Made by a program: the position numbers and the translations under genes. Below, piece after piece: positions 26,769-30,526 of a stretch of DNA of 64,000 nt. Positions within the stretch are counted from its first letter, which is position 1. Each line of letters starts with the position of its first letter. The notes under the pieces are model-generated. The model was not told the origin of the DNA. It ran no database searches and saw nothing but the letters and a program-made list of their open reading frames with translations. The DNA comes from Escherichia coli (GTDB lineage: Bacteria > Pseudomonadota > Gammaproteobacteria > Enterobacterales > Enterobacteriaceae): NCBI RefSeq assembly GCF_003334815.1, contig NZ_QOWO01000002.1, one strand, 5' to 3'.

Positions 26769-27530
<762 letters not shown>

Positions 27531-27918: not shown

Positions 27919-28566
<648 letters not shown>

Positions 28567-28720
28567 TTAGATATATTGATAAGAACAATTCTTATTTATC
28601 TGCTCGCCAGGAATTTTCGGAATAAATATGCTTTTGCATAATTCGATATATAAAGACGGTGTAGAGGAAAAGTAGCGAGAAATTCTGCATGGTTATGCAT
28701 AACCATGCAGAAATGTAAAT

Positions 28721-29608
28721 TTAATTAATGTCTAATTCTTTTATTTTGCTCTCTTTGCGTACTGTCAGCGTAGACCCCATTGAAGCGGCGATGATAGCGC
28801 CGAGCGCCAGTAGCTGTATGGGTGTCAGTGTTTCTCCGAGGAAAATCATCCCGGAAACGGCAGCCAGCGCCGGTTCCATGCTCATCAGCGTACCAAATGT
28901 CCGTGTTGGCAAACGGGTGAGGGCAATCATTTCCAGCGAATAAGGCAGAGCGGTCGAGAGAATAGCGACAGCCAGACCCAATGGAATAACCGACCAGTGC
29001 CAGAGTGCTTCACCAGCCTGAAGCGCTCCAATTGGCACGAAAATTAACGCTGCAATCAACGAACCAATTGCCACCGTCGCAGGGCCATGTTCCGCTCCTG
29101 CGCGTTGCCCACTTAAAATGTAAATAGCCCAACAAGCCCCGGCCCCCAGTGCCAGCGCACAGCCGGTTAAATCGACATGGGAAACGTCTTGCCCCAGCGG
29201 TAGCAGGAACCACAGACCAAGAACCGCCAGCACAACCCAGACGAAATCTACCGGGCGACGAGAAGAGAACAGCGCCACCGCCAGTGGTCCGGTGAACTCC
29301 AGCGCCACCGCAATACCCAGCGGTACTGTCTGAATAGAAAGATAAAAAAGATAATTCATCCCACCCAGCGAAACGCCGTAAAACAACAGCGGTAACCGTT
29401 GCTCTTTGGCAAAGCGCAGTCGCCATGGCTTAAAGAACGCGATGAGGATCAGCGTTCCTAATGCCAGACGCAGCGCAGTGACACCCGGTGCGCCCACCAG
29501 AGGAAAAAGTGACTTAGCTAACGAGGCTCCACCCTGAATAGACGCCATGGCAACGAGCAATATGACTATTGGTAACCAGACCGGCATTTTACGTAATGAA
29601 CCAGGCAT
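28721..29608 (-). CDS. rhtA: Threonine/homoserine exporter RhtA (DMT/EamA family)
   Basis: ORF track 299 aa; start trimmed to MPGSLRKMPV (295 aa); 10-TM hydrophobic profile. Confidence 0.9.
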   Translation of the reverse strand: MPGSLRKMPVWLPIVILLVAMASIQGGASLAKSLFPLVGAPGVTALRLALGTLILIAFFKPWRLRFAKEQRLPLLFYGVSLGGMNYLFYLSIQTVPLGIAVALEFTGPLAVALFSSRRPVDFVWVVLAVLGLWFLLPLGQDVSHVDLTGCALALGAGACWAIYILSGQRAGAEHGPATVAIGSLIAALIFVPIGALQAGEALWHWSVIPLGLAVAILSTALPYSLEMIALTRLPTRTFGTLMSMEPALAAVSGMIFLGETLTPIQLLALGAIIAASMGSTLTVRKESKIKELDIN

Positions 29609-29960
29609 CCTTTCTCCCACAAATATCTAGACTTAAGTAAAGCGTGGAGTGTACTGGATATACCCAATGCTGGTTGAGCATTTGTTGAAAAAATTTTCCC
29701 CCGTTTTGACTAAAATGCGCCAGGATTGATGGAATCATTAGTCTGGTGATTAGGAATAATCTGGATGAATGACAGGGAAAACATGCGTAATACTTACGCA
29801 GTTCTCTGAAAAAGTGATTTAAATTTAGATGGATAGCGGTGTATGGAAACGTTCTGTTACATGAAATGGCCCGTTAGACATCACAAATCGCGAAGAGTTT
29901 CCCATTAATTTTTGATATATTTAAAACTTAGGACTTATTTGAATCACATTTGAGGTGGTT

Positions 29961-30491: not shown

Positions 30492-30526
30492 AAAAAATCC
30501 GCCTCTCGGGGCGGATTTTTGTTTTT
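30492..30526. terminator. Bidirectional intrinsic terminator between convergent ompX and opgE
   Basis: AAAAAATCCGCC-TCTCG-GGGCGGATTTTTGTTTTT: GC hairpin flanked by A-tract and T-tract. Confidence 0.85.

Follow-up and report, generated by a model that had tools for sequence, protein, structure and literature searches.

The 64,000-nucleotide stretch of Escherichia coli DNA analysed here (hereafter, the window) carries a perfect 30-bp inverted repeat between the stop codon of rhtA and the dps promoter, and our preferred reading, to which we assign a probability of about 0.75, is that this dyad is the DNA template of an RNA-level hairpin at the 3' end of the rhtA mRNA. It is most likely an ordinary, unannotated gene-boundary element rather than the binding site of a regulator. 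A conserved, covarying and strand-specific hairpin stands at the rhtA stop, its tail is U-poor, and C exceeds G in the sequence downstream of it.

The dyad is an exact 15 + 15 inverted repeat with zero spacer, TTCTGCATGGTTATGCATAACCATGCAGAA, corresponding to K-12 849172-849201. The sequence and the gene annotation agreed with the original prediction of a perfect 30-bp palindrome between the rhtA stop and the dps promoter. The prediction had also placed its start 9 nt after the rhtA stop and its position ~260 bp upstream of dps. The dyad begins at the 9th nucleotide past the stop, with 8 nt intervening, and the distance to the dps ATG is 261 bp. Along the direction of transcription, the order is the rhtA stop, AUUUACAU, the dyad, UUUCUCGCUACUUUUCC and the sequence that follows it, and then the dps promoter; relative to the dps transcription start, the dyad occupies -222 to -251 (Table 1). 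The sense-strand RNA of the dyad folds into a 13-bp stem, five of whose 13 pairs are G-C, closed by a UGCA loop, with a dG of -18.7 kcal/mol (z = -6.7). RefSeq has nothing annotated at the dyad, and Rfam contained no family for it, permissive thresholds returning noise only.

Table 1 Features of the rhtA-dps region, with coordinates given as positions in the window.
Feature	Position	Strand	Basis
glnH	26769-27515	-	ORF and RefSeq annotation
dps	27919-28422	-	ORF and RefSeq annotation
dps transcription start (K-12 848950)	28461	-	SMRT-Cappable-seq Supplementary Data 2 and coordinate offset
Candidate Rho-loading (rut-like) tract, 80 nt of RNA after the hairpin	28603-28682	-	C-rich, G-poor composition
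Imperfect U-run UUUCUC directly 3' of the stem	28677-28682	-	Sequence
Dyad, putative template of the rhtA 3'-terminal stem-loop	28683-28712	-	Inverted repeat, RNA fold, covariation, wobble asymmetry
rhtA stop-to-hairpin gap, 8 nt	28713-28720	-	Sequence
rhtA CDS, threonine/homoserine exporter	28721-29608	-	ORF and RefSeq annotation
ompX	beyond rhtA	+	

Chance was ruled out as the origin of the palindrome by shuffled and simulated sequences. Besides the dyad, the 64-kb window contained no zero-spacer palindrome with arms of at least 8 nt, the longest arm encountered in 200 simulated 64-kb sequences was 11, and the shuffled sequences gave 0 matches to the dyad. BLAST located one dyad locus per E. 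coli genome, the two places reported in each genome being the two strands.

The surroundings of the dyad were compared across relatives. A Dps scan yielded 80 loci, in 77 of which (Enterobacteriaceae) a same-orientation rhtA was positioned upstream of dps. Fifty-eight distinct versions, drawn from ~20 genera, carried a strong hairpin past the rhtA stop. At the 66 orthologous loci, the gap between stop and hairpin was 2-15 nt (median 8, SD 2.4), whereas the distance from the hairpin to the dps ATG spanned 99 to 357 nt; because the former is tight and the latter variable, the element tracks the end of rhtA. Conservation of the dyad in related genomes, which the original prediction had put forward as a check, was of a particular kind: the hairpin is kept, and the palindromic centre is confined to Escherichia. 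Outside that genus, the loops are 3-11 nt long and non-palindromic, and the spacing between the conserved 9-mers ranges from 10 to 20 nt across orthologs.

The outer stem TTCTGCATG/CATGCAGAA is common to many genera, and the inner stems and loops differ. Both arms were altered jointly in E. albertii (TTTTGCATG/CATGCAAAA), Kosakonia (TTCAGCATG/CATGCTGAA) and Raoultella (TTCTGCACG/CGTGCAGAA), and unrelated stems occupy the same place in Buttiauxella, Cedecea and Klebsiella. RNAalifold, applied to 36 distinct sequences, recovered 11 pairs with compensatory double changes in six of them. By pair counting, 97.7% of cells were paired, compared with 28-43% when the partners were slid, and there were 29 double-change cells against 6.6 in shuffles (0/500). 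No strong hairpin followed the rhtA stop in Pseudocitrobacter (L019, L020), Trabulsiella (L051, L066) or Klebsiella indica (L012), where the rhtA-dps spacers are short (115-217 nt). The element is lost or replaced in these three lineages, and its absence from them indicates that it is dispensable.

A function exerted by duplex DNA, be it an operator or a cruciform, would constrain both strands equally, whereas with an RNA hairpin G·U pairs are permitted on one strand only, the transcribed one, so that an asymmetry in wobble pairs can tell the two apart. Using a symmetric dyad finder that treats all mismatches alike, read on the rhtA-sense strand, we counted 15 G·T/T·G juxtapositions vs 2 A·C/C·A among the orthologous hairpins, corresponding by lineage to roughly 10 vs 2 independent wobble events (binomial p = 0.001). 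The alignment gave the same picture: read as the sense strand it contains 14 wobble cells, read as the antisense strand only 1, and the share of paired cells drops from 97.7% to 94.4% between the two readings. This strand asymmetry points to an RNA made from the rhtA strand.

The kind of 3' end that such a hairpin may provide was approached through its tail and the tract downstream. The original prediction had remarked on the absence of a clean U-tract, and both the tail, UUUCUCGCU, and a terminator pattern scan that was blank at the site bear this out. The E. coli tail, UUUCUCGC, holds 4 U of 8, fewer than the five U that the terminator pattern requires in that length. A scan for consensus promoters and terminators gave no hit at the dyad, and the same terminator scan does pick up the ompX terminator (30493-30520) and a nearby bidirectional terminator. 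Counting T over the 8 nt past the stem, only 3 of the 66 distinct orthologous hairpins reached 5 and none (0/66) reached 6, and many Enterobacter and Raoultella versions have a tail with 0-1 T. On these counts, the weak U-tract is a conserved property and no accident. No A-tract precedes the stem, the upstream sequence being AUUUACAU. The dps-terminator control for the U-tract metric was unclean, as the dyad finder counts A-tract/U-tract pairs as part of the stem and REP-like elements after dps muddy the control further in some genera; we relied on the pattern scan and the raw tail counts. The dps terminator differs even inside E. coli (L007 vs L005), and a REP-like palindrome lies after dps in E. 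whittamii (L009).

Downstream of the hairpin, C was in excess of G. Over the 66 loci, the 80 nt after the hairpin had a mean content of 25% C and 11% G, compared with 19% and 16% in the rest of the spacer, and C exceeded G in these 80 nt at 64 of the 66 loci. The E. coli tract contains 19 C and 10 G in 80 nt, with 12 C and 3 G in its first 40 nt; this C-G excess is modest, ranking in the top 3-8% of all windows (top 2.8% for the first 40 nt). RNAfold pairs part of the E. coli downstream tract, which would be unfavourable to Rho loading.

These features resemble a class described by Dar & Sorek (2018, Nucleic Acids Res 46:6797, PMC6061677), in which Rho-dependent E. coli transcripts end just past stable stem-loops with reduced U content and no upstream A-tract, with C-over-G enrichment and rut sites directly downstream. 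In that study, the hairpins guard against PNPase and RNase II, and the genes that carry them are weakly expressed on average (PMC6061677). The rhtA stem-loop is likewise stable, located just past the gene, followed by a U-poor tail and not preceded by an A-tract; the C-over-G bias begins directly downstream of it, and rhtA is weakly expressed. It differs from the class in that the E. coli rhtA tail still opens with UUU, and it is a candidate member by its anatomy. The U-poor tail together with the downstream excess of C over G favours a protective hairpin of the Rho-associated kind over an intrinsic terminator of the classical type.

In the sequence of events that we propose, RNA polymerase would run beyond the rhtA stop, and the transcript, 8 nt further on, would fold into the 13-bp hairpin. 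The hairpin would be followed by ~80 nt of untranslated, C-rich, G-poor RNA in place of a proper U-tract. Rho, to judge from composition only, could load on this C-rich tract and terminate transcription ahead of the dps promoter, after which 3'-to-5' exonucleases may trim the RNA back to the hairpin and leave a stable rhtA 3' end. In E. coli, the UUUCUC or UUUUCUC tail probably contributes some intrinsic termination, driven directly by the hairpin. Overall, rhtA would have a defined, protected 3' end and the dps promoter would be insulated from upstream transcription. The participation of Rho, the trimming by exonucleases and the exact position of the rhtA 3' end are what we infer from the anatomy. 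Given an RNA hairpin, Rho-dependent termination with a protective hairpin is our leading candidate for the main route, at slightly less than even odds.

Termination that is mainly intrinsic, again given an RNA hairpin, is a weaker but serious contender. It amounts to a classical Rho-independent rhtA terminator, in which the hairpin and the UUUCUC tail release RNA polymerase without Rho, and we regard it as possible, with the odds clearly against it. A stable hairpin on the transcribed strand right after the stop codon, located between tandem units, is shared with canonical intrinsic terminators such as that of ompX (30493-30520); the tail opens with three U, ~21% of E. coli genomes have a UUUUCUC tail with 5 U in 8 nt, and monocistronic rhtA transcripts have been published. 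The rhtA stem is nevertheless AU-rich, with only five G-C pairs out of 13, and the allele in the window falls below the U-tract criterion, having 4 U of 8 vs the 6-8 of canonical terminators. A U-tract is missing in most rhtA orthologs, and the hairpin is nonetheless conserved in those lineages. The published tables also lack a 3' end at the tail, for which low rhtA expression is the likely reason. The E. coli rhtA element is borderline in this respect and may have weak intrinsic termination. Of the original suggestion that the palindrome could be the rhtA terminator, what stood was a covarying hairpin tied to the rhtA stop in ~20 genera with wobbles on the sense strand, and what lost favour was the classical intrinsic type, given the U-poor tails and the downstream excess of C over G.

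Published transcript maps treat rhtA and dps as separate units. In the SMRT-Cappable-seq data (Yan et al. 2018, PMC6131387), rhtA (b0813) starts at TSS 850130 and dps (b0812) at TSS 848950; each is a monocistronic unit of its own, in agreement with RegulonDB. A combined b0813|b0812 variant is absent from the listing, and rhtA has one transcriptional context in both M9 and rich medium. SMRT-Cappable-seq called no termination site in the rhtA-dps spacer (PMC6131387), and the Term-seq data of Adams et al. (2021) contain no minus-strand 3' end near K-12 849163-849171, low rhtA expression being the likely reason in both cases. Adams et al. do list minus-strand 3' ends at 848340, 848673 and 848852. 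The 3'-end tables of TERMITe (2025) list no rhtA 3' end, and a search of the literature on rhtA termination, bicyclomycin, ProQ/Hfq/RIL-seq and the dyad sequence returned no relevant report. On the other side of rhtA, the K-12 gene yliM (b4736), which encodes a 21-codon small protein, maps to ~29843-29908 (+) of the window, between rhtA and ompX, and the plus-strand 3' ends of Adams et al. at 850273 and 850293 fall just upstream of it, in the ompX leader.

The base of the stem is retained more than its neighbour. Taking the first 75 nt after the rhtA stop and the first 130 nt after the dps stop as the regions for comparison (L005-L084), the stem core TTCTGCATG/CATGCAGAA was kept in 44 of 77 loci and 14 of 21 genus groups, and the stem of the dps terminator was kept in only 3 of the same 77. 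Retention of 44/77 vs 3/77 is more sequence conservation than structure alone obviously needs, on the anecdotal footing of a single comparator. It is conceivable, though improbable, that a sequence-specific partner reads the hairpin base and might couple rhtA transcription or termination to far-upstream dps control: the basal sequence persists in those 14 genus groups, whereas the upper stem and the loop are variable and the adjacent terminator of dps has been exchanged repeatedly. Candidates for this role are an sRNA or RNA-binding protein with its target at the 3' end of rhtA, and a protein specific for the extruded form of the DNA.

Antipov et al. (2017, PLoS One 12:e0182800) had already remarked on the repeat and took it for a possible contact of Dps. 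They put a 30-bp inverted repeat, the same element as the dyad, in the middle of a region contacted by Dps, 216-281 bp upstream of Pdps, and suggested that loss of Dps contact could change promoter topology. Their account makes it a DNA target for Dps, whereas the comparative evidence presented here assigns it to the 3' end of the rhtA transcript. A DNA structural element (a cruciform or inverted repeat) that Dps contacts and that sets the topology of the dps promoter would agree with the central position of the repeat in that region, with the ability of each DNA strand to fold at ~-13 kcal/mol around an AT-rich centre (a predicted single-strand fold), and with the affinity of Dps for branched DNA in vitro. 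We consider it a long shot, as the dyad lies outside the Dps ChIP peaks of that paper: peaks 1095 (848722-848980) and 1096 (849459-849608) are consecutive, with a common site at 848882-848994 (Antipov et al. 2017), and 848981-849458 is empty.

The in vitro binding data were placed on the sequence by mapping the primers of Melekhov et al. (2015, PMC4433220). The 214-bp distal fragment F1-R1 contains the dyad, whereas primer F2 starts within its 3' arm and leaves F2-R2 without an intact copy; Dps bound F2-R2 better than F1-R1 in that study (PMC4433220), so the fragment with the dyad was the poorer binder. By the same mapping, the Dps-protected bands, ~175 and 113 bp from F1, flank the dyad and are not on it. 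The excess of sense-strand wobbles and the non-palindromic loops of other genera also indicate RNA and not a duplex-symmetric DNA element. The interpretation of the dyad as a Dps target thus has little support in its own data.

The original prediction had also pointed out that long perfect dyads are typical of operators for dimeric regulators. An operator through which a dimeric transcription factor controls dps or rhtA would account for the perfect dyad, for 9-nt outer half-sites conserved in 14 of 21 genus groups and for the location of the dyad in the far-upstream dps region, and it is nonetheless very unlikely. The 9-mers are at no fixed spacing (10-20 nt), the half-sites carry compensatory substitutions, for instance in Kosakonia, Raoultella and E. 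albertii, unrelated stems stand at the same place in Buttiauxella, Cedecea and Klebsiella, and the centre is non-palindromic outside Escherichia. The tolerance of G·U is strand-specific, the position follows the rhtA stop and not the dps start, and a second copy of the half-site dyad is absent from the window. According to the Dps papers, IHF, Fis, H-NS and MntR act on the dps promoter; the sites for IHF and Fis lie within ~120 bp upstream of that promoter, ~100 bp or more from the dyad. No report of protein binding to the dyad duplex was found in the literature. The variable spacing, the compensatory arms, the non-palindromic centres and the strand-asymmetric constraint speak against the operator suggestion.

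Other candidates were rejected more simply. A terminator for plus-strand transcription was discarded on the grounds that AUGUAAAU, the tail on that strand, is not rich in U and that no transcription unit is known on the plus strand at this place, and an RNase III site on the inference that a stem of merely 13-16 bp is too short. The element resembles REP/BIME in being an extragenic palindrome after a stop codon, of a type able to stabilise the upstream mRNA; it is single-copy, without a REP consensus or an Rfam match, and is therefore neither REP/BIME nor a dispersed repeat.

The 30-bp perfection is not fixed in E. coli. Among 5,426 complete E. coli genomes, ~75% have the exact 30-bp allele, and ~21% of complete genomes have a GAA>GAT change at the 3' end of the rhtA-sense arm (window 28683). 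In the GAT allele, the outermost pair is lost, which leaves a 28-bp palindrome and a UUUUCUC tail with a 4-U run; with 5 U in 8 nt, it marginally meets the simple terminator criterion. Among Escherichia species, the hairpin forms a conserved island: the adjoining downstream sequence is strongly divergent between species, and the dps core promoter is conserved again beyond the divergent stretch. The stem change of E. albertii is a compensated C>U/G>A, with flanks that diverge freely. The loop of Citrobacter, GGTT-TGCATAACC, differs by 1-2 nt from that of Escherichia, GGTTATGCATAACC. That the palindrome is perfect over 30 bp seems incidental. Perfect palindromes are known to arise by mutation when quasi-palindromes undergo template-switch correction, and the 30-bp repeat could have arisen in this way.

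Reading the dyad as the template of an rhtA 3'-end hairpin gives a role to a striking, unannotated palindrome within an intensively studied regulatory region, and its value is one of annotation. It cautions against including the palindrome in the control region of dps or among the targets of Dps. It also offers a clean comparative case of a protective hairpin of the Rho-associated class, in which strand-specific G·U distinguishes function in the RNA from function in the DNA. It implies no new mechanism.

Two observations made during the comparison concern other sequences. Short contigs assigned to Marinobacter sp. BW6 (L010, 703 bp) and Streptomyces polyasparticus (L081, 573 bp) encode Dps proteins 97% and 92% identical to E. 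coli Dps, respectively, and are almost certainly enterobacterial contamination of those assemblies. In the window itself, a small inverted repeat, TATGC-TTTT-GCATA, is located at 28627-28640, ~170 bp upstream of the dps start, and has the TTATGCA/TGCATAA motif in common with the apical portion of the dyad. This small repeat is kept in E. coli and partly in E. albertii, is not conserved in E. whittamii or Escherichia sp. E1V33, and could serve as a site for a protein in the distal region of dps.
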